DNA from: an uncultured Gammaproteobacteria bacterium | Lineage (GTDB): Bacteria > Patescibacteriota > Patescibacteriia > UBA1558 > GWA2-36-10 | Direction of reading: 5' to 3' | Assembly (NCBI GenBank): GCA_964633905.1 | Contig: CAZWIT010000002.1 | Location: 128,833-192,832 of the forward strand | Length of the DNA stretch: 64,000 nt | In this document: positions 16,593 to 53,655 of the stretch, piece by piece | Layout of the letters: each line of letters starts with the position of its first letter | Numbering within the stretch: the first letter of the stretch is position 1 | Program-made: the position numbers and the translations under genes | Notes under the pieces: generated by a model | The model's input: only the letters and a program-made list of their open reading frames with translations | Told to the model about the DNA's origin: nothing | Databases searched by the model: none

Positions 16593-16598
16593 TATACT

Positions 16599-22316: not shown

Positions 22317-22375
22317 GAAAAATAAAAGGCTTTTTGTTATACTATAGCTACAAACTTATTAATTTAAAAAATCTT

Positions 22376-23701: not shown

Positions 23702-24288
23702 AGTCTAAAAGAATTTTTTACATTGTTGGCGCTTTATTATTAGCGCTGATACTGGCAGGAGTTTGGTGGTTTTATCAAAAAGCAAGTAGTCCCTACCCTG
23801 AATTAAGTCCAGAAAAGATAGAGGAGTTAGGCGGACAAGCTGTGGTTGATGATTTATCTCAAAAATTAGAAAATGCTAAAAAAGAATTAGATTTAGCGAT
23901 TGATGATTATGAGTTAAATAATTTACCAGCAGATAAAAAACCAGCCGAAAAGCTTTTTATTAATGCCTCTAATCAAGCTTATTATTTGCATAAGTATGAT
24001 TTAGCCCTTTCTTATTTGCAGGATTTGTTTAAATATTATGATAAGTCGCAAGTAGCTTGGGCTAATATGGCTCATATTTATGAAGCCAAAGGAGAGTACC
24101 AGCAAGCGATTGATGCTTATCTAAAAGTTTATGAAGCTTATAGTATTAAATATATTTATGATCAGGAGATTATGCAAGACTACATTGCCTTGGGTAATCG
24201 GGATAAAGTAGCCGAAGTTTATGCTGCTTATAAGGCAGCGGGTTATAGTAGCGAGTCAGTAGAACAATATTTAAATAATAATAAATAA
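23698..24288 (+). CDS. Membrane-anchored TPR-like repeat protein
   Basis: N-terminal TM. The C-terminal half has a TPR-like periodicity (AWANMAHIYEAKGEYQQAIDAYLKVYEAY). Start overlaps the upstream stop (ATGA). Confidence 0.45.
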   Translation: MKSKRIFYIVGALLLALILAGVWWFYQKASSPYPELSPEKIEELGGQAVVDDLSQKLENAKKELDLAIDDYELNNLPADKKPAEKLFINASNQAYYLHKYDLALSYLQDLFKYYDKSQVAWANMAHIYEAKGEYQQAIDAYLKVYEAYSIKYIYDQEIMQDYIALGNRDKVAEVYAAYKAAGYSSESVEQYLNNNK

Positions 24289-24424: not shown

Positions 24425-25615
24425 TTAAAATAATTTTAAATACAATTCTTCAGTTTCTCTTAAAGTCTTATCCAAGCTAAAATTAGCTTGGATATTTTGA
24501 AAATTTTGCTCAGCTAATTTTTTAGCTAAGTTTTGATCTTGGCTTATTTTTTCCATAGCCTCAGAGAGAGCTAGGGGGTTCAAGTTAGCCTTTAAGAGCC
24601 CTGTTTTCTCGTCAGTAATGATTTCAGATACACCGCCGGTGTTAGTGGCAATAAGGGGTATTTGCGCAAGCCCAGCCTCTAGAATGGTGTAGGGCAGACC
24701 TTCTTTGACTGAGGGCAGTATAAAGTAGTCAAAAGCTTTTAAATACTGCCAGTCATTATCTTGGGCAGCTACGATTTTAAAATAAGCTTCCAAATGTTCA
24801 GTCTTAATTTCTTGCTCGATTTTTGTTTGCTCTGGACCAGAGCCAATCAAAATCCAAAGATGATCTGCAAGCAGAGGGGATTTTTTGGCTTTGAGCATTT
24901 TGACAGCTTCGATTAAATAGTGGTGTCCTTTAGTGGGGTAAAAGCTAGCAATAGTACCAAAATATTTTTTTTTCGGATCCAAATTTAATTTTGCTTGCGC
25001 TTGGTATTTTTCTAGAAAATTATATTTAACTGGATCAATGCCATTGTGAACTACAAAAATTTTATGAGGGGCAGTTATTTTATTAGCAATAGCACTAGTC
25101 TTATCATATTTTGAGACAGCGATAATCAAATGTTGCAAGCCAGTAGAAAAAGTTTCTGATACCTTATAAAGCTTTTTAACATGATTTTTTAAGGGCTCAT
25201 TAAAAACAAAGCCATGAGCAGTATAGACAACGCGCATTCTAGGATTAAGGGGATTAATATTGTAGGCTTGAGCAGCAATGCTGCCTAAAAGTCCAACTTT
25301 AGAACTATTTAAGTGGACTAGGTTATATGATTGTTTATTTAAAATTTTTAGTATTTCAGGAATAGCAAATAAGTCTTGGCTAATATCAATATTACGGACT
25401 AATTTGTGGATTGGTATTAAATGAATATTATTTTGTTTAGCTAAGTTTATAAATTTTTCATTAACATTTTTAGTTTCACCATAGGCAATATGAACTTCAT
25501 TATCTTTACTAAAATGCTGAGCTAATTCTAAAACATATTTTTGAGCACCACCCCATTTAGTTTGGGTGACAATATAGAGTATCTTTTTCCCGGATAATTT
25601 TTTATTGTTTTCCAT
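24425..25615 (-). CDS. Glycosyltransferase, GT4 family (GT-B fold)
   Basis: C-terminal EX7E-type motif region (LPSVKEGLPYTILEAGLAQIPLIATNTGGVSEII). Confidence 0.8.
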   Translation of the reverse strand: MENNKKLSGKKILYIVTQTKWGGAQKYVLELAQHFSKDNEVHIAYGETKNVNEKFINLAKQNNIHLIPIHKLVRNIDISQDLFAIPEILKILNKQSYNLVHLNSSKVGLLGSIAAQAYNINPLNPRMRVVYTAHGFVFNEPLKNHVKKLYKVSETFSTGLQHLIIAVSKYDKTSAIANKITAPHKIFVVHNGIDPVKYNFLEKYQAQAKLNLDPKKKYFGTIASFYPTKGHHYLIEAVKMLKAKKSPLLADHLWILIGSGPEQTKIEQEIKTEHLEAYFKIVAAQDNDWQYLKAFDYFILPSVKEGLPYTILEAGLAQIPLIATNTGGVSEIITDEKTGLLKANLNPLALSEAMEKISQDQNLAKKLAEQNFQNIQANFSLDKTLRETEELYLKLF

Positions 25616-25730
25616 AATATTTTTTAGCTAAAATTAGCTAAATTATTTATTGATTTTTTTATTCAAGCTTGGTATAATTTTATAGAATTTAAGTGATTTT
25701 AGCAAGAAATTAGCGTTCTAAATAGATAGT

Positions 25731-26855
25731 ATGAAGATATTGATAGCCAGTGGTATTTTTTTGCCGGAAATAGGTGGCCCGGCTACTTATGCGGATAGAA
25801 TTGCACGAGATTTTTTAGCCTTAGGCCAGCAAGTAGAAATTATTACTTATTCAGACTCAAATACTGCAAATTTACTTTTTGATAAACAACTGCCTTATTC
25901 TGTTTATAGAATAAAAAGAATTAATAAGATTTTAAATTATTGGCTTTATTTTTTGGCTGCAATCAAGCGAGCACGATCAGCAGATGTTATTTATATTTTT
26001 GATCATTCTAGCGCAGGCTTACCGACTATGCTGGCTAATTTTTTTCTTAGAAAAAATTGCTACATTAGAATCGGAGGGGATTATCTCTGGGAGAGTTATT
26101 TAGAAAAAAGTGGAGAATTAGTAACTTTGCCAGAATTTTATAAGCAGAACATTTATAAAAAATTTAATAATTTTAAATTTAAAATTAGTCGTTTTATTTT
26201 ACTTAAGGCCCAAGGACTTATTTTTACTACTCAATACCAAGCACAGATTTTTAGCAAATATTACCAGCTTGATGCTAAGAAAATATTTATTGTTTCTAAT
26301 CCAATCCTTACTGAAAATAAAGCAGAGCGTAAAAATATTAATAAAGATATTATTTTTGCGGGCCGTTTTGTGCATAAAAATAATATTTTTACTTTATTAC
26401 AAGCTTGGCAACAAATTAAGGATCAATCTTATAATTTGCATTTAATTGGCGCTGGGCCTTTATTGCCAAAATTATCAGCTTTAATAAAAAGTAAAAATAT
26501 AAATAATATCAGTATCGAAGATAGAATTAGCCCTGAAGCATTACGGCAAAAATTAGCTACTAGCTATTTGGCAATTTTTCCTAGTCTTAGTGATATTAGT
26601 CCGAATTTAATGCTTGATTGTTTGAGCCTTGGTTTGCCTTTTATTAGTTCACAAGAAATTGGTTTTACTTGGTTAAAAGATCAGATTATCACTTTTGATC
26701 CTAAGGATCCCCAAGCTATGCTAAGGCAAATAAATTTTTTGTTAGAGCCTGTAAATTATCAAGCCTATCAAATAAAAATAAAGCAAATAGATTATCACTA
26801 TACTTATATTGCTGCGGCTCAAGATACGCTAAATATTTTTAAAGCTAGTTTATGA
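25731..26855 (+). CDS. Glycosyltransferase-like protein (GT4-like N-terminal domain)
   Basis: N-terminus MKILIASGIFLPEIGGPATYA typical of GT4 enzymes. C-terminal motifs are divergent. Confidence 0.55.
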   Translation: MKILIASGIFLPEIGGPATYADRIARDFLALGQQVEIITYSDSNTANLLFDKQLPYSVYRIKRINKILNYWLYFLAAIKRARSADVIYIFDHSSAGLPTMLANFFLRKNCYIRIGGDYLWESYLEKSGELVTLPEFYKQNIYKKFNNFKFKISRFILLKAQGLIFTTQYQAQIFSKYYQLDAKKIFIVSNPILTENKAERKNINKDIIFAGRFVHKNNIFTLLQAWQQIKDQSYNLHLIGAGPLLPKLSALIKSKNINNISIEDRISPEALRQKLATSYLAIFPSLSDISPNLMLDCLSLGLPFISSQEIGFTWLKDQIITFDPKDPQAMLRQINFLLEPVNYQAYQIKIKQIDYHYTYIAAAQDTLNIFKASL

Positions 26856-27931
26856 AAGTTATTGGCTTAGGTTTAGATAAACAAATATTAAAAGCAGATT
26901 CAACTTTAGCTAAGCGAGCTATTTTTTATGCTGCCAATTTAGATGAATTTTTATTTATTTTTCCAGGCGCAGGTGCAAGATCATCTTTAACGGATAAAGT
27001 TAAGGTTTGGCCAAGTGGTTCAGACAAAAAATTGCTTAGTTTATGGTATATTTATAAAAATTTAATTAGTTTATTAAAAAGCAGGCAATATCAGCTACTA
27101 ACTATCCAAGATAACTATTTTTTGGCTGTTTTAGGCGTATATTTAGCTAAAAAATATAAAGTAAAAGTAGAGATTCAAAACCACGGCTTTGAAAAATTAA
27201 CTTGGTGGCGGCGCCTCTTGGTTAGTTGGGCTTTTAAGCGGGCTGACTTAATCAGGACAGTTAGTCAGAGCTTAGCTAATTTTTTAGAGTCAGAATTTAA
27301 AGTTAGGGCAGATAAAATTTATATTGTGCCAGTGCCACTAGATATCGAAGCTTTGCAAAAAGCGCCGCATCATTTTGATCTACATGACAAGTATTCAGCT
27401 AAATTTATTTTTTTAACAGTTGGCCGTTTAGTGGCAGTAAAAAATATTGCTTTGCAAATAAAGGCTTTAGCTGAACTTAAAGATGAACAAGTTGTGTTAT
27501 TAGTAGTTGGCGATGGTCCAGAAAAAAATAATTTAGAAAAATTAGTTCAAGATTTGAATCTAGAACAACAAGTTTTTTTCTTGGGTTGGCAAGAGCAACT
27601 AGCAGATTATTATCGGACTAGCGATTGTCTTTTACTCACTTCTTTTAGTGAAGGTTTTCCTTTGGTAATTAGTGAGGCTTTAGTTTACAATTTACCAATT
27701 GTAATGACCGATGTTGGTAGTGCCGGCGATTTGATTAAAGATAATTATAATGGTTTAGTGGTGCCGATTAATGACTTATTGGCTTTAGTGCGAGCAATGA
27801 AAAAAATTAAAAGCGATATTGAGTTAAGGCAAAAATTAAAAACCAACAGCTTGGCATCTGTAAAAAATATTTTAGAAGCAGAACAAACGCGAGCCTTGAT
27901 TCAGAGTCGTTGGCAGAGTTTATTTTTATAA
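26852..27931 (+). CDS. Glycosyltransferase, GT4 family
   Basis: GRLVAVKN...LLTSFSEGFPLVISEALVYNLPIVMTDVGSAGDLI. Confidence 0.8.
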   Translation: MKVIGLGLDKQILKADSTLAKRAIFYAANLDEFLFIFPGAGARSSLTDKVKVWPSGSDKKLLSLWYIYKNLISLLKSRQYQLLTIQDNYFLAVLGVYLAKKYKVKVEIQNHGFEKLTWWRRLLVSWAFKRADLIRTVSQSLANFLESEFKVRADKIYIVPVPLDIEALQKAPHHFDLHDKYSAKFIFLTVGRLVAVKNIALQIKALAELKDEQVVLLVVGDGPEKNNLEKLVQDLNLEQQVFFLGWQEQLADYYRTSDCLLLTSFSEGFPLVISEALVYNLPIVMTDVGSAGDLIKDNYNGLVVPINDLLALVRAMKKIKSDIELRQKLKTNSLASVKNILEAEQTRALIQSRWQSLFL

Positions 27932-27952
27932 TTAGTATAAGTATTTAAATTT

Positions 27953-28402
27953 ATGTTGCTACGAAAAATAATGTTTAAATTAAAATTGTGGAAAAGATTA
28001 TTTAAACGAATCGGTGAGCACACTATTATTGCTAATAGTATTATAGTTTATCATCCGGAAAATATTGAAATCGGCAATCATACTATTATTAACGAGTATG
28101 CTTTATTAAATGGCGGCGCAGTTATAAAGATTGGTGATTATGTGCACGTGTCTTCTTTTTGCGTGATTAACACTAGTGGTTTAGATTATCATAAGATTTT
28201 AGCAGACCGCACTCATATTTATCAGCCAGTTATTATTGAAGATGGAGTTTGGTTAGGTTCAAATGCTATTATTAATCCAGGTGTAACCATCGGTAAAAAT
28301 TCAGTAATTGGAGCTGGGGCAGTAGTTACTGCTGATATACCAGCAAATTCATTGGCAGTGGGCATACCAGCTAGAGTTATTAAACAGATCAATCAAAATT
28401 AG
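27953..28402 (+). CDS. Sugar O-acetyltransferase, left-handed beta-helix (hexapeptide-repeat) family
   Basis: Hexapeptide repeats (IGNHTIIN, IGDYVHVSS, GVWLGSNAIINPGVTIGKNSVIGAGAVV). Confidence 0.8.
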   Translation: MLLRKIMFKLKLWKRLFKRIGEHTIIANSIIVYHPENIEIGNHTIINEYALLNGGAVIKIGDYVHVSSFCVINTSGLDYHKILADRTHIYQPVIIEDGVWLGSNAIINPGVTIGKNSVIGAGAVVTADIPANSLAVGIPARVIKQINQN

Positions 28403-28411
28403 TTTTTAATT

Positions 28412-29452
28412 ATGAGATTGTTAATTTTAACACAAAAAGTAGATAAAAATGATGCTATTTTAGGCTTTTTTCAGGCTTGGATTTTAGAATTTGCTAAAAA
28501 TTGTGAGCAATTAATAATTATTTGTTTAGAAAAAGGCGAGTATGATTTACCGGCCAATGTTAAAGTTTTGTCTTTAGGTAAAGAAATAGCGCCGCAGCGT
28601 TTTAAATATATTTTTAATTTTTATAAATATATTTGGCAAGAACGTAAAAATTATGATAGCGTTTTTGTGCATATGAATGTTGAGTATGTAGTTTTGGGCG
28701 GACTATTATGGAAACTATTGGCTAAAAAAATAGCCTTATGGTATATGCATAAAAGTATAACTTTAAAATTAAAATTAGCCGTTAGTTTAAGCAATTATAT
28801 TTTTACTGGTACTAAAGAAAGTTTTCGTTTAGTTAGTAATAAATTAAAAATATTACATCATGGTATAGATAATAATCTCTTTATTTTTCAAGAAAAAGAA
28901 AAACATCTAGAATTAAGATTATTAACAGTTAGCAGAATTACAGCTATTAAGCAAATAGATTTGATACTTGAATCGCTAGCTGTGTTAAAACAAAAAATAA
29001 ATCGGCCAGTAGTTTTGAAAATAGTGGGTGAAGCAATTACAAAAAATGATAAAGTATATTTAGCAGATTTAAAATTAAAAGTTCATAAACTTGGTTTAGA
29101 TGATAGTATAGAATTTTTAGGTCCGCTGACTAATCAGCAAGTAGTTGATGTTTATCATTGGGCAGATATATTTTTAAATTTTTCTAAAACTGGCAGTCTT
29201 GATAAAGCAATTTTAGAAGCAATGAGTTGCGGGACATTGGTACTTAGTTCCAATGATGCTAGTCGTAGTTTTTTGCCAGCAGATTATTTTATTGATCAAT
29301 TAATGCCTGAGTTGATTGCGGAAAAAATTATAAATTTATCATTGTTAGCAGATGATGCTAGTAAAATTTTAGCAAGTCGATTGAGTAAGTATGTAAGTGA
29401 TAATCATAATTTAAATAAATTAATTTTTGAAATAGTATCCTTTTTAAAATAG
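28412..29452 (+). CDS. Glycosyltransferase, GT4-like
   Basis: C-terminal GT-B motifs (ADIFLNFSKTGSLDKAILEAMSCGTLVLSSND). Confidence 0.65.
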   Translation: MRLLILTQKVDKNDAILGFFQAWILEFAKNCEQLIIICLEKGEYDLPANVKVLSLGKEIAPQRFKYIFNFYKYIWQERKNYDSVFVHMNVEYVVLGGLLWKLLAKKIALWYMHKSITLKLKLAVSLSNYIFTGTKESFRLVSNKLKILHHGIDNNLFIFQEKEKHLELRLLTVSRITAIKQIDLILESLAVLKQKINRPVVLKIVGEAITKNDKVYLADLKLKVHKLGLDDSIEFLGPLTNQQVVDVYHWADIFLNFSKTGSLDKAILEAMSCGTLVLSSNDASRSFLPADYFIDQLMPELIAEKIINLSLLADDASKILASRLSKYVSDNHNLNKLIFEIVSFLK

Positions 29453-29461
29453 TTATATAAT

Positions 29462-30103
29462 ATGGATTTATTAGAATTTGAAAATAAATTTTGGCAGCAA
29501 AATACGCAAGCAGAAACAATTAGGCATAGAGTAGCTGCCAGTATGATTGATAGTGCTAAAGTTTTGGATATTGGTTGTGGTGATGGCTTGTTTTTAAAAA
29601 TTTTAAAGAACAAAGGAATAGCAGCTTGTGGTTTGGATATTTCTACTATTTCTGTCGATAAATGTATAGCAGCCGGCTTAGAGGCTAGTGTCAGTGATTT
29701 TAGTGCGAATAAATTGCCATATAATGATAAAGAATTTGCCTTTGCTGTAATGTTAGATATTTTAGAACATTTATATAATCCAGATGAATTGTTACAAGAG
29801 GCAGCTCGGGTGGCTGATAATATTATTATCAGCGTGCCAAATTTTAATTCTTTGGCAGCTAGAATCCAAGTTTTGTTAGGTTTAGTGCCAGAAAATAATA
29901 TGCCTAGACAAGGGCACATTTATTGGTTTAATTATAAGAATCTAAAACAGATGATCAATAAACATAATTTAGAAATACAAGAGATAAAATGTAATTATAT
30001 TTGGGAAAACAAATTTTTATTTGCGCCTCTGATGAAATTATTAGGAAGAAATTTTCCCTCACTTTTTGCTTTATCTTTTATTGTTAAATTAAAAAATAAA
30101 TAG
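29462..30103 (+). CDS. Class I SAM-dependent methyltransferase
   Basis: Motif I VLDIGCGDGLF and the downstream acidic residue (MLDILEH). Confidence 0.75.
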   Translation: MDLLEFENKFWQQNTQAETIRHRVAASMIDSAKVLDIGCGDGLFLKILKNKGIAACGLDISTISVDKCIAAGLEASVSDFSANKLPYNDKEFAFAVMLDILEHLYNPDELLQEAARVADNIIISVPNFNSLAARIQVLLGLVPENNMPRQGHIYWFNYKNLKQMINKHNLEIQEIKCNYIWENKFLFAPLMKLLGRNFPSLFALSFIVKLKNK

Positions 30104-30104
30104 T

Positions 30105-30845
30105 ATGAATAATTCAGAATTTCCTCAAAAATATTTTGGCCAAGTTGATAATGAGGTAGCCAAGCAGCAGGATATAAAAAATATTTCTCACCGCAAAAAA
30201 TTTGTAGAAATAATAAAGTCCTTGCCTCAGAATTGTACGGTTTTAGATGCTGGCTGTGGTTCGGGTAAATATTTAAAGTTTATTTTGGCCTATCGTCCAG
30301 ATATCAAAGTTTACGCTGTTGATATTAGCGATGTTAGTAATTATATGCCAGAACAGGTTAAATTCATCCAATGTTCAGTAGAGGATCTTGATCAGCATTT
30401 TGAGGAAAATACTTTTGATTTTATTGTCTCGGCCCATGTGATTGAACATCTGCTAACACCTATGAAGATGATGGCGGCTTGCAAAAAAGTCTTAAAGCCA
30501 GAAGGGCAATTATATATAGAGACACCTAATTGGGTAAGACTTTTTGTGCCTTGGTTGCCCCAATTTTTTTATAGTGACTATACCCATATTAGAGTTTTTT
30601 CTAAATATACTATGTTTTATTTATGTAAAGATTTTGACTTTGAAATTAAATTTTTAAAATCTTATAGTAGTACACCATTATGGATTAGTAGGGTAAATGT
30701 TTATGAAGCCATAGCACCAGTTCAAGAGACAAATAAAATAAAGACCAAGCCACTACCCATAAATTTGTTAAGTAAAATAATGACTCGTTTGTGGTCAATT
30801 GTTATTAAAGATATAATGATTTTAGTAGCAGTCAATAAAAAATAG
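30105..30845 (+). CDS. Class I SAM-dependent methyltransferase
   Basis: Motif I VLDAGCGSGKY. VSAHVIEHL. Confidence 0.75.
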   Translation: MNNSEFPQKYFGQVDNEVAKQQDIKNISHRKKFVEIIKSLPQNCTVLDAGCGSGKYLKFILAYRPDIKVYAVDISDVSNYMPEQVKFIQCSVEDLDQHFEENTFDFIVSAHVIEHLLTPMKMMAACKKVLKPEGQLYIETPNWVRLFVPWLPQFFYSDYTHIRVFSKYTMFYLCKDFDFEIKFLKSYSSTPLWISRVNVYEAIAPVQETNKIKTKPLPINLLSKIMTRLWSIVIKDIMILVAVNKK

Positions 30846-30846
30846 C

Positions 30847-31905
30847 ATGCAGAAAAAAAATTTTTATTTTATATCTTTCGGTTCCATTGGTGATTTTTTA
30901 ATGGATATTGTTTTAGCTGAAAATATCAGACAAGATGGTTTGCGACAAAAAGATGTTGATGTTAGATTATATATAATTATTCCTAAGCAAAATAATTTTT
31001 TGCAAGATATTATAAAATATTATGATTATATAGATTTGATAGTGCTTGATAATTTTAAAAAAAAGATATTGTTTTATTTTAAGAATTTTTATAAATTAAA
31101 TTTTATATTTACCGTGCCTACTTTCGGCAGTATGCCAATAGAGCTTAAAATATTTGGATTTTTAATAACCCGTAGCAAGGGCAGTAAATTTATTGGATTT
31201 AATGATAAAAGTGGTATTAATAAATATTTTTATGATAAGGAAATTATTTTTGATTATCATCAGCCTTATTATGAAAATTTATTAAAAATATTAGATTTTT
31301 TAAAAATTAATTATAGTAAGGAGCCTCCTTTTTTAGATATTGAAATTGATAGAAAATTAGTAGATAGTCAATTTACACAATATCTAGATAAGTCCTATGT
31401 TGTATTACATGTCTGTGGTAAAAATATTACTAGATCTTGGCCAGTTGATAATTGGGTAAAGTTTATTAATTATTTTCACCAAAATTATCCAGAACATAAT
31501 ATTATTATGACAGGCTCTAAACAAGATACTGATTTTATTAATCAAATAATTAATAATTTACCAGAAGCGGATTTTATAAAAGATTTTAGTGGGAAATTAA
31601 ATTTTAATGAGTTATTATTTTTATTAAAAAATTCCAAGTTATATATTGGCGTAGACACTGGCATTACCCATTTGGCTAGTCTCTTGCGTTTACCAAGTTT
31701 AGTGATTGGCAACCTATCAAATCCAACTTGGCTTTCATATTATAATCCACTGGTCACCATTTTATTTAATAAAGAGAATTGCACCTGTAAGGGTGATAAA
31801 AGTGGTAATTGTTATTATTTTATAGATGACAAAAAATATTATCGTTGTATGATGGATATAAAATTTGACGATGTAATAAATAGTTTAAAAAAATATTTAA
31901 ATTAA
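30847..31905 (+). CDS. Glycosyltransferase family 9 (heptosyltransferase-like)
   Basis: N-terminal FISFGSIGDFLM and a C-terminal VVLHVCGKNITRSWP...LYIGVDTGITHLASLLRLPSLVI block characteristic of GT9 (RfaF/WaaC-like). Confidence 0.65.
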   Translation: MQKKNFYFISFGSIGDFLMDIVLAENIRQDGLRQKDVDVRLYIIIPKQNNFLQDIIKYYDYIDLIVLDNFKKKILFYFKNFYKLNFIFTVPTFGSMPIELKIFGFLITRSKGSKFIGFNDKSGINKYFYDKEIIFDYHQPYYENLLKILDFLKINYSKEPPFLDIEIDRKLVDSQFTQYLDKSYVVLHVCGKNITRSWPVDNWVKFINYFHQNYPEHNIIMTGSKQDTDFINQIINNLPEADFIKDFSGKLNFNELLFLLKNSKLYIGVDTGITHLASLLRLPSLVIGNLSNPTWLSYYNPLVTILFNKENCTCKGDKSGNCYYFIDDKKYYRCMMDIKFDDVINSLKKYLN

Positions 31906-31919
31906 GTTATTAAAAATTT

Positions 31920-32519
31920 ATGAAAAAATATGCACCTTTAATCTATAATCCTGACAAAATAATATCTAAGAATGCTTTGGCTGAATTTGAGAAAATTTTA
32001 GATATTGGTTGTGGCCCCAACAAAGTAGAAGGCGCTACGGGTATTGATAGTATTAAAAGTCCAGGCGTAGATGTAGTTTGGGATTTGGATCAATATCCTT
32101 GGCCTTTTCCGGATAATCATTTTAATCTTATTATTTCTAACCATGCTTTTGAGCATTTGACAGACCTAGTGAAAGTTATCACTGAGTGTTATCGTATTTT
32201 AGGGCCAGAAGGTAGATTAATTGTTAATGTGCCTTATTTTAGAGATAGAGATGCCTTTGGTGATCTTACTCATAAACATTTTTTTACAGTCCGATCTTTT
32301 GATCATTTTGTTAAAGGTACAAAAGCTAGCCGTTATAAATACGCTAATGTAGATATGGAGCTAGTTGATATTTACTTAGGTTGGCCTAGTGTTAGCAAAA
32401 ATAAAATACGCAACATATTAAAAAAATTTATCAACGGGCATAAAGATTTTTATGAGAAAAAGTTATCTTATTTCTATCCGGTTAGAAATATAGTTTATGA
32501 GTTGCTTATAAAAAAATAA
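31920..32519 (+). CDS. SAM-dependent methyltransferase
   Basis: ILDIGCGPNKVEGATGIDS motif I. NHAFEHL. Confidence 0.65.
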   Translation: MKKYAPLIYNPDKIISKNALAEFEKILDIGCGPNKVEGATGIDSIKSPGVDVVWDLDQYPWPFPDNHFNLIISNHAFEHLTDLVKVITECYRILGPEGRLIVNVPYFRDRDAFGDLTHKHFFTVRSFDHFVKGTKASRYKYANVDMELVDIYLGWPSVSKNKIRNILKKFINGHKDFYEKKLSYFYPVRNIVYELLIKK

Positions 32520-32530
32520 ATTTTTTAGGA

Positions 32531-33772
32531 CTATATTTTTTTAAAATAATATCTCAACAGAAAACCATTGAGTAGTAATTGGATAATAGTAGCTAAAATG
32601 GCTCCTTTGATTTGAAAAAGGGGAACAAAAATTAACATTAAAACTATTTGTAGAATTGGTCCAATAGTATTGATAATGTATAAAAATTTTGTTTTATATT
32701 GAGTTTGAATTGCCAGTAGCAATAAATTTTGGGGATAAAAAAGTAAAATTAAAGAATATAATTGTGAGTAAAAAACAGAGTCTAAATAAGCGGGAAAAAA
32801 TATTTTATAGATTGTAGGTGCAGCTAGCCAGTATATTATTATAATAAAAAATAAAACAAAATATAATCGAGATATTTTTTTTGGTAAATTTTCTTGTATT
32901 TCTAAATTATTTTGTTGGCTTATTTTTGGTAGAGCTAAGGTGCCTAAATTTTGTAAGTAGCCTTTAATATGAATAATTGGTGATATTGATAAAGCATAAA
33001 TGGCTAACTGCACTGGTCCTAAAAAATGCCATAAGATTAATTTATCGGCATTGCTAGCAAGAGCTCCCAGGACACCCATAAAGCTTAAATGTTTGCCGTA
33101 TTTTATGGTTTCTGAATCTTTTAGTTTATTTGCTTTATATTTTTTGACTGTTAAAATGAAAAATAAAATAGACAGTAAAGTATTAATAAAAAGATGGGCA
33201 ATGATAATACTAATTAAACTATGAAATTTTGTTATTATTAAGGTAATAAAAAGCAGATAAACAGTCACACGAATCATTTTGTAGATACTGGATGTTTTAA
33301 AAAGTTTTTTAGCATTTAGGATAGCCGCATAGACATCAAAACTTTCTAGCAGCGGAAAAAATAGAGCACAGATTAAAAATATTTTAGCAAAATCAGTATT
33401 ATTTTTATATTGATAATAGCCAGCAATAAAAATAAAAATTAAACTTGCCAACAGACTCCACTTAAGTTTAGTTTTTATAATATCATATATAGAGCCTTCT
33501 TGATTTTTGGCAATTGCCTGGATTAAGGCAGTATTTAGACCGGGTAGATTAAAGATAGTTAAAATAGCAATAATAGAAGCTACATATTGATAGCTACCAT
33601 AGGTTGTTTTACTTAAAAAATTAGCAAAAATAATAGTAATAAGGAATGCTACTATAACTCCGATGGTTTGGCTAAAAATTAACCAAAATCCGCCTTGAGC
33701 TAAATACACCATATCAGTTTTGGTGTATTTTTCACTCCAGCGCAAGAGATTGTATAATTTATTTTTAAGCAT
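32531..33772 (-). CDS. Wzx-like oligosaccharide flippase (MOP/polysaccharide biosynthesis protein family)
   Basis: 413 aa with about 12 TM helices. The N-terminal region resembles Wzx/RfbX flippases. Confidence 0.65.
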   Translation of the reverse strand: MLKNKLYNLLRWSEKYTKTDMVYLAQGGFWLIFSQTIGVIVAFLITIIFANFLSKTTYGSYQYVASIIAILTIFNLPGLNTALIQAIAKNQEGSIYDIIKTKLKWSLLASLIFIFIAGYYQYKNNTDFAKIFLICALFFPLLESFDVYAAILNAKKLFKTSSIYKMIRVTVYLLFITLIITKFHSLISIIIAHLFINTLLSILFFILTVKKYKANKLKDSETIKYGKHLSFMGVLGALASNADKLILWHFLGPVQLAIYALSISPIIHIKGYLQNLGTLALPKISQQNNLEIQENLPKKISRLYFVLFFIIIIYWLAAPTIYKIFFPAYLDSVFYSQLYSLILLFYPQNLLLLAIQTQYKTKFLYIINTIGPILQIVLMLIFVPLFQIKGAILATIIQLLLNGFLLRYYFKKI

Positions 33773-35136
33773 TAGCGTCCTAAAGCCATGTTAAAGACGG
33801 CGTTGATAGTTTTTAAAATAATAGAAATATCTAAGATAATTGATTGATTTTTAATATAAAATAGATCATATTGCAACTTTTCTTTAGCATCAACCACCGA
33901 AGAGCTGTAAGGATAATTAATTTGTGCCCAACCAGTTAAGCCCGGTTTAATAATGTGTCTTTCGTTGTAAAATGGCACTGCTTGGCTTAATTGTTCAACA
34001 AATTCGGGACGTTCAGGGCGTGGTCCTACAAAACTCATGTGGCCAATTAAAATATTTAGAAATTGAGGTATTTCATCAAGACGTAAGCGTCGCATAAATT
34101 TACCAACTTTAGTAATGCGAGTATCATTTGGTTGTGACCAGACAGCTCCATTTTTCTCAGCATCTACTATCATAGAGCGAAATTTATAAACTTTAAATTT
34201 TTTACCTAAATAGCCAACGCGTATTTGTTTGTAGATAATCGGGCCAGGGGATTCGATTTTAAGAGCAATGATTATCAGAGGAATTATTAGTAAGGATAAT
34301 ATTCCAAACACTAGAGCAAAGATAATATCGATTACTCTTTTGGCTATTGGAAAAGTGCGGTTGTTTTTTTGAGTGATATTTTCTAAAAACCAAATTTTTT
34401 CTAAAGCAAGCAAAGGAATTTTTCCGGTAATTTTTTCGTAAAAATTAGTTAGGTTATAATATTGGATTTTAAGATCCAGGCTATCAAATAAGGCGCGGGC
34501 AATTTCAGGACTGTAACTTGGGTTATTAAGATTTACTACGGTATTTATTTTGTGCTGACGTAGTTTATTTTTTAACTCAGTAATATCTTTAATACTAGGT
34601 ATAATTTGAAATTTTTCTGGTAAGGGGGAATGGTCAGGGTTAACTATTAGTCTTATTTTGTAGCCTAATTGTGGTTTACTGATAATTTCCTCAATTAATG
34701 ATAATGATTCTGGGCTAACTCCAATTAAGGCCAGATTATTACCCAGGGTAGTACTAGAATTTATTTGGTAGAAAAATTTTCGCCATAAAAAAAATAAAAT
34801 TGCAAAAACAGCAATTAATATCAATAATATAGTTTGTGGTTTTAGATCACTAAAGCGTCCAAAGATTAAATAAAAAAATAAAACAGCCAGTAAGGCGTTA
34901 ATAGCTATATTTTTGGCTATTTGCCCATAAAATTTAAAGTCATTACGAGCTTTATCAAAGTCATAAAGACCGTTAATAAAAAATACCAAGATCCAAACCA
35001 GAAAAATAATACTAAAAGGTATTAAGTGTTTTTGCCAAATAGCATTAGACCAATGACCATAGCGCATCCATAGAGTTAGACCTAAACTAATATATAATAT
35101 AACAATGTCTCCCAAACAGAGGCTAAGTTTTTTCAT
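33772..35136 (-). CDS. Polyprenyl-phosphate glycosyl-1-phosphate transferase (bacterial sugar transferase, WbaP/CpsE-like priming enzyme)
   Basis: C-terminal catalytic domain IESPGPIIYKQIRVGYLGKKFKVYKFRSM...DEIPQFLNILIGHMSFVGPRPERPEF. N-terminal TM bundle. Confidence 0.85.
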   Translation of the reverse strand: MKKLSLCLGDIVILYISLGLTLWMRYGHWSNAIWQKHLIPFSIIFLVWILVFFINGLYDFDKARNDFKFYGQIAKNIAINALLAVLFFYLIFGRFSDLKPQTILLILIAVFAILFFLWRKFFYQINSSTTLGNNLALIGVSPESLSLIEEIISKPQLGYKIRLIVNPDHSPLPEKFQIIPSIKDITELKNKLRQHKINTVVNLNNPSYSPEIARALFDSLDLKIQYYNLTNFYEKITGKIPLLALEKIWFLENITQKNNRTFPIAKRVIDIIFALVFGILSLLIIPLIIIALKIESPGPIIYKQIRVGYLGKKFKVYKFRSMIVDAEKNGAVWSQPNDTRITKVGKFMRRLRLDEIPQFLNILIGHMSFVGPRPERPEFVEQLSQAVPFYNERHIIKPGLTGWAQINYPYSSSVVDAKEKLQYDLFYIKNQSIILDISIILKTINAVFNMALGR

Positions 35137-35313
35137 GGGTTTATTTTAAAAATATATTTGATATTATACTATAAATAAGCCATTTTTGTCAATAAAAACG
35201 GCTTTATTTTTTTAAATTAGACTTGTTTATTTATCAAAATAAAGTATAATTTAGGAAATGCATAAGATTAACTTTTGTTTATACAAATATTTTAAAAAAT
35301 AAAATAAATATTT

Positions 35314-37503
35314 ATGAAAATCAATTGGCCACGTTTAAGAAATATTGATGACTTTCTTAATTTAATTATTAAAATTTGTTTAGTTTTAGTATTTATTACT
35401 CCTTTGGTTGCCCCAATTTTTTCTAGGCAACTTGAGAGTTTTAATTATTATTTCCCTTTTATTGTCCCGCGTAATATATACTGGCGTTTTTTGGTAGAAC
35501 TTGCTTTGACTTCTTATTTATTTTTAGCCTTGCATCATAAAATAGCTAAACCACAATTAAATAAGGCTTATACTTTTTTTATTTTATTTGTAATATCTTT
35601 ATTTATTTCTAGTTTGTTAGCTCAAAATTTTGTTTTTAGTTTCTGGAGTAATTATGAGCGTATGGATGGTCTAGTAAATTGGCTACACTTGCTGGCTTAT
35701 GTTTTTGTTTTAGCCGCCTATTTAGGCAAGCATAAAAAGTCATGGCAGTTGTTAATGAAGGTTTCTATTTTGATTGCTGTATTGGTCGCTTTGCATGCTT
35801 TAGGGCAAAGATTAGGTCTAACTTGGTTAATTGCTTCTTCGGGCGGCGCTAGATTAGCTGCTACTTTAGGCAATGCTGCTTATGTTGGCTCTTATTTATT
35901 TTTACATTTAGTAATTTTAAGCTATTTATTTATTTTAAATATTAGATCAGGCAAATTATGGTCCTTAAGTAGCTGGGCTTATTTTTTTAGTGCGATATTA
36001 TTTATTTACGTTTTAGTGGCTACTAATACCAGAGGACCATTTTTGGCTTTAATGTTTTTTGTGTTTTTTATGGCCCTGGCTTATTTGTGGTTTCAGCGTA
36101 AATCACGCCATCGTTTTTATTATGTGGTAGCAGGGCTATTGTGTTTAATGATATTTTTTGTAGCTTTATTATTTATTCAAAAACAGAGTACTTGGGTAAA
36201 AGCAGTGCCTTTGTTTGAAAAGATATCTAGCATATCTTTGAGCGATACTAGCACTCAGTCACGTTTATTGATTTGGGGCGAGAGCTTAAAAGCTTTTAAA
36301 GAAAAACCAATTTTTGGTTGGGGCGAAGAAAATTTTATTTATGCTTTTAATAAATATTTCCCAACTAAGATTTATCATGGCGCTGGTTCAGAAACCTGGT
36401 TTGATCGGCCACATAATATCTTGGTGCAGCATTTAATCCACGGCGGTCTACTGGCAGTTTCTCTTTATTTGGCAATATTTATTTATTTGATTATTCTTTT
36501 ATACAAAGAATATAAAAAAGATCATGATTGGCTAATTAATTTTTTGTGGATTGGCTTTTTGCTTAGTTTCTTGCTACAAGATTTATTTATTTTTGATAAT
36601 TTGAGCGTCAGCGTAGTTTTTTATCTATTATTAGCCTTTTTAATAGCAACTTTGGGTAATGAAGCAGGCGGTTTTTGGTCTAGAACTAGCGCATTATTTA
36701 GCAAAATAAAAATTAGGAGAACTCATTATAAAATTTTGCCTTTTATTTTATTATTTTTATTTCTCTGGTCTTTGCAGGAAATGATCTATAAACCGTTGTT
36801 AAGTAATAAAATTTTAGTTAATACTTTACGTGACTCCTATTTAGCGAGTAGTGCCGATGATTTTACTAAATTACAAGCAGATTGGGAGCGCTCAGTTAAT
36901 TTGACTAGCTTAGGGGACAAGGAAAAAGTCGAAGTTTTATTACAGATGTTTCAAAGTGTTTTAAATAATAAACAGGCCACTGATCAAGATAAGAGAAACT
37001 TTTTTGCCTTATTGGGTAATAATTTTGAAGAAGTAGCTGCAAAATATCCAGATGATATTAGGTTTAATATGATTTTGTCTTCTTTTTATGCTAACTTGAT
37101 GCAAGTAGAGCCAGTTTTTGCTCAAAAAAATGTTGCCCTTTTAGAGCGTTTAGAAGCTTATGCTCCTAAGCGACCAGATATCAAGATGTCTTTAACGGGC
37201 GCTTATTTACAACTTGGTAATTTAGAAGGAGCTAAAAAAGTAGCAATTGCTGCTAAAGATTTGGTGCCAGATGTGAGAGAAGTATATTGGAATTTAGTTT
37301 ATGTTTATGTTCAAGAAAAGAATCTTAGTGAATTAGATATATCTTTAAAGAAGATTATAGTTTTAAATATGCAGATTGAGGGTATTGCTCTGAGCCAAGA
37401 AGATGTGATGAGGTTGAATTATATTTTATCTAGAGTTGATCAGAAAAAAGATCCAGAATTATATAAAGTTTTGAATAATTTTTTACCAGCTAGTCAGGAA
37501 TAA
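35314..37503 (+). CDS. Wzy_C (O-antigen ligase / O-oligosaccharyltransferase PglL-like) polytopic membrane protein with C-terminal TPR-like domain
   Basis: 729 aa with about 12 TM helices. The loop LVATNTRGPFLALM is characteristic of the Wzy_C family. The C-terminal ~220 aa are soluble, helical and TPR-like. Confidence 0.65.
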   Translation: MKINWPRLRNIDDFLNLIIKICLVLVFITPLVAPIFSRQLESFNYYFPFIVPRNIYWRFLVELALTSYLFLALHHKIAKPQLNKAYTFFILFVISLFISSLLAQNFVFSFWSNYERMDGLVNWLHLLAYVFVLAAYLGKHKKSWQLLMKVSILIAVLVALHALGQRLGLTWLIASSGGARLAATLGNAAYVGSYLFLHLVILSYLFILNIRSGKLWSLSSWAYFFSAILFIYVLVATNTRGPFLALMFFVFFMALAYLWFQRKSRHRFYYVVAGLLCLMIFFVALLFIQKQSTWVKAVPLFEKISSISLSDTSTQSRLLIWGESLKAFKEKPIFGWGEENFIYAFNKYFPTKIYHGAGSETWFDRPHNILVQHLIHGGLLAVSLYLAIFIYLIILLYKEYKKDHDWLINFLWIGFLLSFLLQDLFIFDNLSVSVVFYLLLAFLIATLGNEAGGFWSRTSALFSKIKIRRTHYKILPFILLFLFLWSLQEMIYKPLLSNKILVNTLRDSYLASSADDFTKLQADWERSVNLTSLGDKEKVEVLLQMFQSVLNNKQATDQDKRNFFALLGNNFEEVAAKYPDDIRFNMILSSFYANLMQVEPVFAQKNVALLERLEAYAPKRPDIKMSLTGAYLQLGNLEGAKKVAIAAKDLVPDVREVYWNLVYVYVQEKNLSELDISLKKIIVLNMQIEGIALSQEDVMRLNYILSRVDQKKDPELYKVLNNFLPASQE

Positions 37504-37528: not shown

Positions 37529-37562
37529 AGAGCAGCCTTGTGCATAGGCTGCTCTTTGTTTT
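37529..37562 (+). terminator. Rho-independent terminator
   Basis: AGAGCAGCCT-tgtgcat-AGGCTGCTCT followed by TTGTTTT. Confidence 0.8.
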
Positions 37563-37587
37563 AGGTAGCAAAATATGTTATAATAAA

Positions 37588-37642
37588 CCCTGTTAAATGC
37601 CACGCAGTGGCAGTCCCGTTAAGGCGGGACTATTTAACAGGG
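37588..37642 (+). ncRNA. Candidate cis-regulatory structured RNA (three-way junction) in the 5' leader of the chemosensory/pilus operon
   Basis: An 11-bp closing helix (CCCTGTTAAAT/ATTTAACAGGG) encloses two hairpins (GCCACgcaGTGGC and GTCCCGttaaggCGGGAC). It lies between a terminator and the gene start at 37678. A TATAAT sits at 37579-37584. Confidence 0.35.
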
Positions 37643-37677
37643 TAAAAGGGTTATAAAAAGCAAAAACAAAAATTAAA

Positions 37678-38820
37678 GTGAAGTTAGTAGAAACTAAAAT
37701 TTATTTAAAATTTATTGTTTGGTTTATTGGTGTGGCTTTGCTGCCCATGGTGCTATTATTGCTATCTTTTTATTTAGCGGGCCAAGATGGGGTTAGCCCA
37801 TTTTTATCTAATTTACCGACTATTATTTGGATTGGAATTTTCTCTTCTTTGGCTTTAGTTTTATTATTGTCACTACTAGCGACTCGTTATTTATCTAGGA
37901 TAATAACTTCACCAGTACAACGTTCGGTTAATGAGCTTTCTCAAGTGGTAGATTTGCTCTTAAAATCTATTCAAAATTTATCTACTATTAGCCAAAGTAA
38001 TAATCAGATTTCTCAAGTTTTAACTATCACCAGCCAACAACAGCAGTTAGGCTTAAAAAATGGTGGCAAGGCTCTAGCTAGTATGGTTTCAGCTTTGAAT
38101 AAGATTAGCCAAAAAACAGAATTAGTTACTAGCGATGCTATTAAGACTGATAAGCTTGCCAAAGAAGGAGCGACTAAATCAAATAAAGCCATAGCTAGTC
38201 TTTCGGCAGTTAGAAATTTATTAACTGAACATCAAAAATTAAGTCAAGCTTTGCAGGCCTATACTAATAAAGTTGTAGATATAGCTAAAAGAGTGGCTGT
38301 GGTAGCAGATACGGCTAGATTTTTTAGCTTAAACATGTCGATTGAGGCTAATAAAACAGCTTTAAGTGAGGATTTTGTTGATTTAGTGGCACAATTACGC
38401 GATTTGAATATGGCTAGCGAAACCGCAGCTAGTAGTATTCAAAATTTATCTGAAGAAATGCGTCGTCATATTGAACAGTCTAAACAGTCGACTATTTTTG
38501 AGTGGCAAGAAACTAATAAAAGTATTGATACTGTAGTACAAACTCTTAATTTTTTTGACAAAATTATCAAAAATGTTGCCCAAATTACGGATAACATCCA
38601 AGTAATTAATCAAGAAAGTTCAAGTACCTATCAAAAGGCTGGCGATATTAATACTATGATCAAAGATTTGACTAAACAATCACAATTACTAGTTAAGCAG
38701 ACAGATGATATTACTAAAGTAATTCAAAATCAATTGGTGGTAACCAGGTCTTTAAATAAATCATCTTTGTCTTTAAATGAAGTTACAGATTCCCTAGATA
38801 ATTTAGTAGGTAGTAAATAA
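37678..38820 (+). CDS. Methyl-accepting chemotaxis protein-like transducer (PilJ-like), GTG start
   Basis: Two N-terminal TM helices with a very short loop, then a coiled-coil signalling region. VAVVADTARFFSLNMSIEANKTA aligns with the conserved MCP signalling-domain core. Confidence 0.6.
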   Translation: MKLVETKIYLKFIVWFIGVALLPMVLLLLSFYLAGQDGVSPFLSNLPTIIWIGIFSSLALVLLLSLLATRYLSRIITSPVQRSVNELSQVVDLLLKSIQNLSTISQSNNQISQVLTITSQQQQLGLKNGGKALASMVSALNKISQKTELVTSDAIKTDKLAKEGATKSNKAIASLSAVRNLLTEHQKLSQALQAYTNKVVDIAKRVAVVADTARFFSLNMSIEANKTALSEDFVDLVAQLRDLNMASETAASSIQNLSEEMRRHIEQSKQSTIFEWQETNKSIDTVVQTLNFFDKIIKNVAQITDNIQVINQESSSTYQKAGDINTMIKDLTKQSQLLVKQTDDITKVIQNQLVVTRSLNKSSLSLNEVTDSLDNLVGSK

Positions 38821-38821
38821 G

Positions 38822-39238
38822 ATGGCAAGTATTGGTAAAAAATACATTTTAATAAAGATTAACGAAGAGCAATGGGCTTGGCCGCTTGAGTCTAGTAGTC
38901 AATTTTTTAACATCGATTATATCTTACCTTTGCCTAAGACAGATAAATATATAGCTGGCCTTGCTTATCAGCATGGGCGTATTTTGACTGTGCTTAGGGC
39001 TGATAAATTAATTGGTCATGCCAAAAGTAATTTAAATATGAAGCAGGCTTTGTGGTTTGACTATCGACAAGATGCTTATGCAATATTAGTTGATGCTGGT
39101 GGCGAAATCATAACTGTTAAAAATTTTTCTAATGATCCACAAAAGAAAATCTTCAAAAAATATTTTAAACATCAAGCCAGTAGAATATATTGTTTAGAGC
39201 CAGAATTAATCATGTCAATATTAAAGATTTATGATTAG
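38822..39238 (+). CDS. CheW-like coupling protein
   Basis: 138 aa. YILIKINEEQWAWPL...YIAGLAYQHGRILTVL matches the CheW-domain pattern. Confidence 0.7.
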   Translation: MASIGKKYILIKINEEQWAWPLESSSQFFNIDYILPLPKTDKYIAGLAYQHGRILTVLRADKLIGHAKSNLNMKQALWFDYRQDAYAILVDAGGEIITVKNFSNDPQKKIFKKYFKHQASRIYCLEPELIMSILKIYD

Positions 39239-40790: not shown

Positions 40791-40791
40791 T

Positions 40792-41211
40792 ATGGAAAAT
40801 AAGTTAGGGAAAATTTTGTTTGTTGATGATGATAATTTTTTACGCAAAGTTTATCAGTCAGAATTAAGTGAGCGTAATTATGAGGTAGTGTTAGCGGCTG
40901 ATGGTTTAGAGGGTTTAGAAAAGGCACAACTCGAAGATCCAGATTTGATTATTTTAGATATGATTATGCCTAAGAAAAATGGTTTCGAAGTCTTGACTGA
41001 ATTACAACGTAACCCCAAGACCCGTAGCATACCAGTGATTATTTTATCTAACTTGGGTCAGGAAGATGATAAAAAGAAAGGCATTGATTTGGGAGCAGTG
41101 GATTATTTAAAAAAGGATAATATGACTTTAGATTTATTGGTGGAAAAAATTAGTCAATATTTGAATTCTAAAACACATAGTAAACAAGCTAAAAATAATC
41201 AAGTAGTTTAA
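40792..41211 (+). CDS. CheY-like single-domain response regulator (PilG/PilH-like)
   Basis: ILFVDDD...DLIILDMIMPKKNG receiver-domain motifs. 139 aa, no output domain. Confidence 0.85.
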   Translation: MENKLGKILFVDDDNFLRKVYQSELSERNYEVVLAADGLEGLEKAQLEDPDLIILDMIMPKKNGFEVLTELQRNPKTRSIPVIILSNLGQEDDKKKGIDLGAVDYLKKDNMTLDLLVEKISQYLNSKTHSKQAKNNQVV

Positions 41212-53625: not shown

Positions 53626-53655
53626 TATTTTATTAATAATAATTAAATATAAAAT

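Follow-up and report, generated by a model that had tools for sequence, protein, structure and literature searches.

A glycan assembly island in a Patescibacteria genome ends in a predicted WaaL-fold, TPR-fused enzyme, a candidate for protein O-glycosylation

Gene content of the glycan island

We analysed a 64,000-nucleotide stretch of contig CAZWIT010000002.1 (positions 128,833 to 192,832, forward strand; GenBank assembly GCA_964633905.1), called the window here, from an uncultured bacterium deposited as a gammaproteobacterium and placed by GTDB in Patescibacteriota. Our subject is a glycan assembly island at window positions 24425-37503 and above all its last gene, which encodes a 729-amino-acid protein with a Wzy_C domain and a C-terminal tail of tetratricopeptide repeats (TPR). 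The original prediction, made from the letters alone, took the island for a complete lipid-linked oligosaccharide pathway whose terminal PglL-like enzyme would glycosylate the pilins of the neighbouring pilus locus and a large surface protein.

The left edge of the island is formed by a GT4 glycosyltransferase gene on the reverse strand (24425-25615; Pfam Glycos_transf_1, 5.3e-31, and Glyco_transf_4), and a homologous reverse-strand GT4 gene occupies the equivalent spot in the related loci L006, L087 and L089. Two GT4 genes follow on the forward strand (25731-26855 and 26852-27931; Glyco_trans_1_4, Glycos_transf_1 and Glyco_transf_4), succeeded by a hexapeptide, left-handed beta-helix acyltransferase (27953-28402, forward; Hexapep, 7.5e-16) that is presumed to act, with acetyl specificity, as a sugar O- or N-acetyltransferase. 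The next product is a GT4-like GT-B glycosyltransferase (28412-29452, forward; Glycos_transf_1, 2.3e-17), its C-terminal domain alone being recognised. Further along the forward strand lie a pair of S-adenosylmethionine (SAM) methyltransferases (29462-30103 and 30105-30845; MetW, Methyltransf_23 and Methyltransf_11), a heptosyltransferase-like GT9 glycosyltransferase (30847-31905; Glyco_transf_9, 3.6e-19) whose matches to NCBIfam heptosyltransferase models all fall far under their cutoffs, and a third SAM methyltransferase (31920-32519; Methyltransf_11, 9e-11). The reverse strand then carries a Wzx-type lipid-linked oligosaccharide flippase of the MOP family (32531-33772; Polysacc_synt, 5.3e-21) and a priming polyprenyl-phosphate hexose-1-phosphate transferase, a large monotopic phosphoglycosyltransferase (PGT) of the WbaP/WcaJ class (33772-35136; Bac_transf, 1.7e-66). 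The PGT scored 379.8 bits against NCBIfam TIGR03025 (cutoff 295.55) and stayed under the cutoffs of the WcaJ and WbaP equivalog models. The island closes with the forward-strand gene of the 729-residue protein (35314-37503; Wzy_C and TPR_19).

Pfam and NCBIfam scans bore out the gene inventory and coordinates of the original prediction: where it had counted four to five GT4 enzymes and one GT9, we found four GT4-type enzymes and one GT9, and the three methyltransferases, the hexapeptide acyltransferase, the flippase and the Wzy_C protein with its TPR tail were all recovered by Pfam. Its claim that the locus lacks a lipopolysaccharide (LPS) context also holds, since no lpx or waa genes occur among the window genes scanned, the GT9 gene aside. 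With a PGT, five glycosyltransferases (four GT4-type, one GT9) and a MOP flippase in a single locus, the family assignments support the predicted complete Wzx-dependent lipid-linked oligosaccharide pathway; on its own, the island is an ordinary Wzx-dependent glycan locus.

The two ends of the island are conserved among orthologous loci, with GT4 genes on the left and Wzx, PGT and Wzy_C genes on the right. The middle varies in gene content among the orthologous loci L001, L003, L004 and L005, where, depending on the locus, radical SAM enzymes, epimerases, carbamoyltransferases or a FemAB-like gene appear. In the window, the G+C content of the middle (28000-36000) is 0.27-0.30, the minimum of the whole stretch, against 0.32-0.40 in the flanks. 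Such cassette-like variability is typical of surface-glycan loci (O-antigen, capsule) under diversifying selection.

Fold and class of the terminal Wzy_C enzyme

The Wzy_C match of the 729-residue protein covers residues 226-386 at 82.5 bits (Pfam gathering cutoff 31.7), and the same model was matched by 51 of 51 family members; the protein reached no NCBIfam model. Because a single-sequence search of the PDB gave weak TPR matches and the full-length family profile was swamped by TPR proteins, we made two family profiles and a structural model restricted to the transmembrane (TM) region. AlphaFold (AF2) models computed from the 51-sequence alignment were confident, with predicted local distance difference test (pLDDT) scores of 91.5 (full length) and 88.1 (membrane domain). 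In Foldseek searches of the PDB, the top match of the full model was the ligase WaaL of Cupriavidus metallidurans (7TPG; E 1.2e-4), the remainder being TPR proteins, and the TM-only model had 7TPG as its sole significant match (7tpg_B; E 7e-5), the others being transporter noise. For the membrane domain, the TM-scores with 7TPG were 0.52 and 0.60. Searched against PDB sequences, the two TM-only profiles likewise found 7TPG as the sole meaningful match, at 34.0 and 34.9 bits.

Alignment with WaaL also points to three residues. R191, R265 and H313 of 7TPG align with R240 (in TNTRG), R317 (in SRLLIW) and H367 (in DRPHN), all invariant in 51 database homologs, 45 GTDB loci and 13 orthologs or tandem paralogs of related loci. 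An hhalign comparison of the family with Escherichia coli WaaL (E 9e-4, 246 columns) paired the identical three residues. In 7TPG, the two arginines bind the pyrophosphate of undecaprenyl pyrophosphate (Und-PP) and the histidine activates the acceptor (PMC10920833).

Hydropathy, positive-inside analysis and the model helices gave a topology of 13 TM helices, with Lys/Arg-rich loops on the cytoplasmic side (138-145, 209-217, 261-269, 397-407 and 449-473) and conserved loops, including the catalytic loop at 289-377, predicted to face outward. Through the 13th helix, the TPR domain (residues ~493-729) is predicted to be extracytoplasmic and so to face the same way as the catalytic loop. The AF2 models and Foldseek matches recover the 12-TM GT-C(B) fold with a long outer loop that is seen in WaaL, and we regard the protein as a predicted WaaL-fold, ligase-type GT-C enzyme with R240, R317 and H367 as candidate catalytic residues.

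The likeness to WaaL (C. metallidurans 7TPG and E. coli; CAZy GT121) extends to the GT-C(B) fold, the Wzy_C domain, the Arg/Arg/His triad and, by prediction, the donor type, a flipped polyprenyl-PP-linked glycan. The differences are substantial: identity is only ~16%, and the window enzyme adds the 13th TM helix and an extracytoplasmic TPR domain of ~240 residues. There is moreover no LPS locus here and the host phylum is generally held to be without lipid A, so the acceptor must differ.

The layout of the island would also suit a Wzy polymerase making a capsule, an exopolysaccharide or a secondary cell-wall polymer, to which the N-terminal domain of the surface protein might bind. PGT, Wzx and a single Wzy_C protein make up the classic Wzy-dependent arrangement, and the best PGT model is that of an 'exopolysaccharide biosynthesis' subfamily. 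Wzy polymerases (GT-C1 clan BP-Pol) are members of the same superfamily from the same kind of PGT and Wzx locus, and Pfam Wzy_C matches many of them too. In the inverting polymerase families, however, Asp or Glu replaces the ligase His (PMC10920833), and neither residue stands at the His367 position in any of the 13 locus orthologs and tandem paralogs. The family profile that hhalign matched to E. coli WaaL gave nothing against the E. coli O16 polymerase WbbH, and Pfam scans of the window's open reading frames (ORFs; 8.2-63.1 kb plus the L2 gene) found no Wzz/PCP co-polymerase or regulator, no LCP ligase and no tyrosine kinase. Several paralogous polymerases per locus, as found in relatives of the window, would also be unusual. 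Since WaaL is the sole PDB fold match, Arg/Arg/His is invariant, Asp and Glu are missing at the His position, WbbH is unmatched and no Wzz-type domain was found, we take the enzyme for a ligase- or oligosaccharyltransferase-type member of the superfamily, in agreement with the original prediction on this point, and we consider a polymerase improbable.

The narrower label 'PglL-like' did not survive. Neither PglL_A (PF15864/IPR031726) nor Wzy_C_2 (PF11846/IPR021797) matched the 729-residue protein even at E<=10. PglL_A does not figure in the list of the 25 families that the 51 members matched most often, and Wzy_C_2 gave weak matches in two of the 51, the best at E 2.9e-4. It is by these two domains that the literature tells the PglL and PglS classes apart from WaaL (PMC3643930, PMC12645811). 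We examined the enzyme for membership in four classes of O-oligosaccharyltransferase (O-OTase), namely PglL, PglS, TfpO and TfpM, and it fell outside each of them.

Function as an O-OTase is still compatible with this outcome. PilO likewise has no PglL motifs, the three Arg/Arg/His residues are common to WaaL and PglL (PMC3643930), and the core seen here is what all known O-OTases have in common with WaaL (PMC12645811). PglL and PglS of Neisseria, Burkholderia and Acinetobacter, which include general and ComP-specific O-OTases, have the Wzy_C core with Arg/Arg/His (PMC3643930) and transfer their glycan en bloc, without polymerisation, from an Und-PP donor flipped by a Wzx-like protein; besides having the two marker domains that the window enzyme lacks, the characterised PglL and PglS enzymes are all from Gram-negative bacteria.

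Gene neighbourhood, family and candidate acceptors

To the right of the Wzy_C gene lie genes for a methyl-accepting chemotaxis protein (MCP), CheW, CheA and CheY, followed by PilB, PilC, large pseudopilins with lectin-like domains, PilM and two 167-residue major type IV pilins (53122-54159, starts at 53122 and 53656, forward; Pfam N_methyl, TIGR02532). The original prediction had the Wzy_C gene directly upstream of the pilus operon, yet PilB starts 3.7 kb and the major pilin genes 15.6 kb downstream of it, beyond the chemosensory genes, a terminator and a promoter. The intrinsic terminator (37529-37555, forward), 26 nt past the Wzy_C stop codon, is a hairpin with a 10-bp stem, six GC pairs among them, followed by TTTGTTTT; a similar hairpin with a T-tract, TTTTGTTTT, and differing stems stands at the equivalent place in most of seven orthologous loci. 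An extended -10 element for the downstream Chp/pilus cluster, TATGTTATAAT (37574-37584, forward), is invariant over its 11 nt in seven of seven aligned orthologous intergenic regions. Because this terminator and invariant promoter intervene, the Wzy_C gene forms, in the seven loci compared, a transcription unit apart from the Chp/pilus cluster. On its other side, the divergent PGT-Wzx pair is preceded by a predicted sigma-70 promoter (TTGACA-18-TATAAT, 35163-35192, reverse strand) that matches the consensus at 12 of 12 positions.

We took a census of the neighbourhoods of 89 family loci, searching 10 kb around each with the window proteins by tblastn and phmmer. Among the 11 close orthologs (~42-46% identity across the full-length protein), all had a PGT, and 10 had MCP, CheA, PilB and PilC, the 11th locus being incomplete. 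None of the 78 other family loci had PilB, PilC, CheA or an ORF with a prepilin motif within that distance. Ten of 11 orthologs against none of 78 others makes the pilus adjacency an inherited gene order of one lineage and not a property of the family, and together with the separate transcription unit this removes the adjacency as evidence for a pilin target.

An O-OTase dedicated to the pilins and tied in function to the neighbouring type IV pilus operon, after the pattern of TfpO, TfpM or PglS, would account for the order Wzy_C, MCP-CheW-CheA-CheY, PilB, PilC that is kept in 10 of the 11 orthologous loci. It would also suit the pilin sequences, which are 18.6 and 19.8% Ser+Thr and carry Thr-rich tracts (HPTTTPTPTAG...TTTT) at about residues 69-95, which we take to be roughly the glycosylation position of Neisseria PilE. 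TfpO/PilO and TfpM resemble the window enzyme in that their Wzy_C core lacks both PglL_A and Wzy_C_2 and in their genomic association with type IV pilus genes. Their genes, however, adjoin the pilin gene and they modify its C-terminal Ser/Thr (PMC12645811), whereas the window pilins are encoded at a distance, in other transcription units, and end in Arg (...DIELVR and ...NIEVVR), with no terminal Ser/Thr. PglS, for its part, contains the two marker domains that are absent here. Given also the intervening terminator and promoter and the 78 pilus-free loci, we consider a pilin-dedicated enzyme very improbable.

The left flank offers a different candidate acceptor. After housekeeping genes (ribosomal protein L2, SecY, Adk, Map and RuvX) come PDZ, HTH, extracytoplasmic function (ECF) sigma and DUF5667 genes, and then genes for a 1283-residue, a 455-residue and a 196-residue TPR protein before the island begins. 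The 1283-residue product (18379-22230, forward) has a signal peptide, is S-layer-like and rich in Thr, Ser, Ala and Gly, and matched no Pfam family. At 21.5% Ser+Thr it lies well above the window median of 10.4%, and the eight window proteins richest in Ser+Thr are pilus proteins, surface proteins and the MCP-like protein. The ortholog at L089 is ~38% identical over 621 residues, with the N-terminal ~230 residues (18379-19100) far better conserved than the remainder. This pattern fits a conserved anchor with a variable outer part, and the conserved region may be a cell-envelope anchoring domain. By eye, the C-terminus of the 455-residue secreted protein (23350-23701) resembles a '...VY.V..G.K..F....' stretch of that N-terminal region. 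An ECF sigma gene just ahead of DUF5667 (16038-17951) occurs in the window, L006 and L089, a placement that suggests dedicated regulation of the surface protein.

Similar layouts recur in relatives. At L006, L013, L045 and L089, the DUF5667 gene is followed by a secreted, Ser/Thr-rich protein of ~1150-1270 residues, then by at least one Wzy_C-TPR gene and then by glycosyltransferases. L006 and L089 also have the upstream PDZ, HTH and ECF sigma genes and a ~230-residue protein between the surface-protein and Wzy_C genes. L087, whose sequence starts within the large protein, has from there on the same layout, with three tandem Wzy_C paralogs. In the window, a membrane-anchored TPR protein of 196 residues (23698-24288, forward; an N-terminal TM segment and weak TPR matches) precedes the island, and TPR proteins of ~230 residues hold the equivalent position at L006, L087 and L089 with marginal sequence similarity. 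We considered orthology between these proteins and discarded it: only the TM segment and a weak TPR stretch align, leaving a positional analogue at most. The neighbouring 455-residue ORF (22334-23701) was likewise rejected as a degenerate second Wzy_C gene; its product is secreted, has no TM segment and has no homologs in related loci. On this evidence, a link of the enzyme to the large surface protein is better supported than a pilin target.

Tandem Wzy_C-TPR paralogs, two to three in number and ~2.2 kb each, are found at L087 (3018-10463), L001 (10001-13961) and L003 (7825-12181); all retain Arg/Arg/His, and they are a large investment for the small genomes of the Candidate Phyla Radiation (CPR). 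The right-end Wzy_C gene itself is duplicated in some relatives (699 and 622 residues; 727 and 726 residues). Up to three ligase-type paralogs in a row fit the use of several acceptors or donors.

The family reaches well beyond these loci. The best homologs of the 729-residue protein come from metagenome bins of Patescibacteria, that is CPR (Nomurabacteria, Komeilibacteria, Parcubacteria, Paceibacterota), and nearly all are 700-830 residues long with Wzy_C and TPR. Among GTDB species representatives, the motif [FM]WS[NS][YF]ERM marked at least 589 confirmed loci; of the 80 best, the titles either name Patescibacteria lineages or are taxonomically uninformative, with no other phylum named. As far as sampled, this is a very large family confined to Patescibacteria. 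In the literature that we searched, no paper linked CPR bacteria with an O-antigen ligase or treated the TPR-fused family, and a PNAS perspective on Patescibacteria leaves glycans unmentioned. O-glycosylation of CPR pilins has been put forward by software prediction only (PMC12206443), with no candidate transferase named in the literature searched.

The closest documented functional analogue, by our comparison, is the S-layer glycosylation (slg) cluster of Bacillales. The predicted S-layer O-OTases WsaB of Geobacillus stearothermophilus and WsfB of Paenibacillus alvei carry Wzy_C, a C-terminal TPR motif is present in WsfB and in PglL, and a small TPR protein gene, wsaA, precedes wsaB (PMC2943079). 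The hosts are monoderm, as here, and the clusters likewise combine a WbaP-type PGT, several glycosyltransferases, O-methylation and a Wzy_C enzyme. TPR is fused to the enzyme in WsfB or encoded by the small adjacent gene in wsaA; the window has both a fused TPR and a small TPR gene. The slg clusters lie near the S-layer gene, which in our case would correspond to the gene of the putative S-layer protein, placed 2.2 kb to the left of the island and, in relatives, right beside the cluster. Judged against the published description (PMC2943079), this architecture and neighbourhood are found in the window and at L006, L045, L087 and L089. The likeness to WsaB and WsfB is one of published description and a common Wzy_C domain, and one component differs, Geobacillus using an ABC transporter where the window island has a Wzx flippase.

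We propose the following pathway. The Bac_transf PGT would load a hexose-1-phosphate onto polyprenyl phosphate, after which the four GT4-type enzymes and the GT9 enzyme would lengthen the glycan, at the cytoplasmic face, to about six sugars and the three SAM methyltransferases and the hexapeptide acyltransferase would decorate it, in an order and with a chemistry that we infer. The Wzx-type flippase would then carry the finished unit to the outer face. These three steps are built on solid family assignments. In a fourth step, for which the WaaL fold, invariant residues and predicted topology speak, the 729-residue enzyme would pass the glycan en bloc to a hydroxyl group of the acceptor. If it works as WaaL does, the pyrophosphate would be bound by R240 and R317 and the acceptor activated by H367.

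To our knowledge, Patescibacteria are monoderm and lack LPS and lipid A, and a lipid A-core is an unlikely acceptor because the organism belongs to this phylum. TPR is a protein-binding module. Since the host is monoderm and without LPS, the paralogs are all ligase-type and the TPR domain is predicted to be extracytoplasmic, the acceptor would most likely be Ser/Thr (or Tyr) of surface proteins. We therefore put general protein O-glycosylation first, at a probability of roughly 0.45, with the S-layer-like 1283-residue protein as first candidate acceptor and the pilins perhaps included; the Thr-rich pilins and the pseudopilins are possible additional targets. Such a system would work like the Bacillales S-layer glycosylation clusters or the pgl system of Neisseria. 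From the general O-glycosylation hypothesis of the original prediction, the ligase-type pathway and the lack of an LPS context are retained, and the PglL class and the pilus adjacency are given up.

Several observations weigh against protein O-glycosylation. By sequence and by fold, the nearest relative is a true lipid A-core ligase, WaaL, and PglL_A and Wzy_C_2 are missing. An entry annotated 'Oligosaccharyltransferase' in the PDB (9rmk chain A, 610 residues) matched the full-length profile at 34.9 bits (profile 128-406, chain 126-400); it was matched by neither TM-only profile and was outside the top 50 Foldseek matches of either model. As it matched the full-length profile alone, it does not tie the family specifically to known O-OTases. 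Polysaccharide-export scaffolds contain TPR domains as well, so such domains are not specific to protein acceptors. In the window, the Wzy_C paralogs that relatives have beside the surface-protein gene are absent, and the one gene present, at the right end, is 13 kb from it. Among the 78 non-ortholog loci, 37 had at least one PGT, Wzx or glycosyltransferase gene, but 41 had no recognisable glycan genes within 10 kb. Finally, high Ser/Thr is normal in extracellular proteins; the enrichment of the pilins and the 1283-residue protein, on which the original prediction had leaned, is real, and we reject it as evidence of glycosylation on this account. The original prediction had also held that clustering with WaaL in place of the O-OTases would speak against it, and at the level of the nearest solved structure the enzyme does, formally, side with WaaL. 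This lowers the case for a PglL but not that for an enzyme that glycosylates proteins, because the acceptor of WaaL should not exist in the phylum.

The same nearness to WaaL is what recommends a non-protein acceptor, in which the flipped oligosaccharide would go to a membrane glycolipid anchor (forming a lipoglycan), a cell-wall polymer or peptidoglycan, the enzyme being the monoderm counterpart of WaaL and its TPR domain a scaffold. The missing PglL-class markers fit this equally, many family members are encoded away from surface-protein genes, and GT121, the family of O-antigen ligases, also occurs in Gram-positive bacteria, where its acceptors are unknown (PMC10920833). In the island, on the other hand, we recognised no genes for the biosynthesis of an anchor lipid or cell-wall polymer, and a single conserved non-protein acceptor would hardly explain why several tandem paralogs, each with a TPR domain of its own, directly follow the surface-protein gene in relatives. 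In monoderm bacteria, moreover, LCP enzymes rather than Wzy_C proteins normally join polymers to peptidoglycan. We consider a non-protein acceptor unlikely, though next in probability after protein O-glycosylation.

More tentatively, and with the odds against it, protein O-glycosylation could be extended from the locus to the phylum: TPR-fused WaaL-fold enzymes may be the O-OTases of an unrecognised general protein O-glycosylation system in CPR bacteria, with paralogs specialised by surface protein (the S-layer-like protein, pilins or adhesin pseudopilins, for example) and a variable island middle giving each lineage its own methylated and acylated coat. Patescibacteria grow fixed to other microbes, with the surface layer and the type IV pili as their main organs of contact. 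If general O-glycosylation is true, the glycan coat would shape host attachment and phage evasion of these epibionts; were the glycan instead attached to a lipid or to the cell wall, the family would mark out an unknown kind of glycoconjugate made by a monoderm phylum. The object of interest is a large, uncharacterised Patescibacteria family of TPR-fused ligases that recurs beside surface-protein genes. What the analysis contributes is a conserved family of candidate enzymes, with an outward TPR domain and three residues predicted to be catalytic, and a syntenic block that takes in the surface-protein gene, the glycan island and the pilus genes.

Further features of the flanks

The MCP-like, CheW, CheA and CheY module (37678-41211) lies directly 5' of PilB and PilC and is kept in 10 of 10 orthologous loci with enough flank. 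Its place next to PilB and PilC suggests that the type IV pili of this CPR lineage are under chemosensory control of the Pil-Chp type. Upstream of it, in the 5' leader of the MCP-like gene, we noted a highly structured 55-nt insert (37588-37643) with two hairpins enclosed by a CCCTGTTAAAT/ATTTAACAGGG stem. It occurs once in the window and is missing from the matching intergenic region of six orthologous loci. The Wzy_C-MCP intergenic region as a whole has a folding z-score of -7.5; Rfam gave nothing at gathering thresholds in the whole window and nothing meaningful for the insert.

Within the pilus cluster, the segment 44157-51225 encodes pseudopilins of 1232 and 425 residues with Laminin_G_3 and DUF2341 domains, as well as a 371-residue protein with Fib_succ_major. 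With 18-22% Ser+Thr, these proteins are among the most Ser/Thr-rich of the window, and they are likely adhesive tip or minor pilins. In the left flank, a second priming enzyme, polytopic and 350 residues long (11397-12449; Pfam Glycos_transf_4, MraY/WecA family), is encoded between the RuvX and DUF192 genes; candidates for its identity are MraY and a WecA/TagO-like enzyme that initiates a different glycopolymer.

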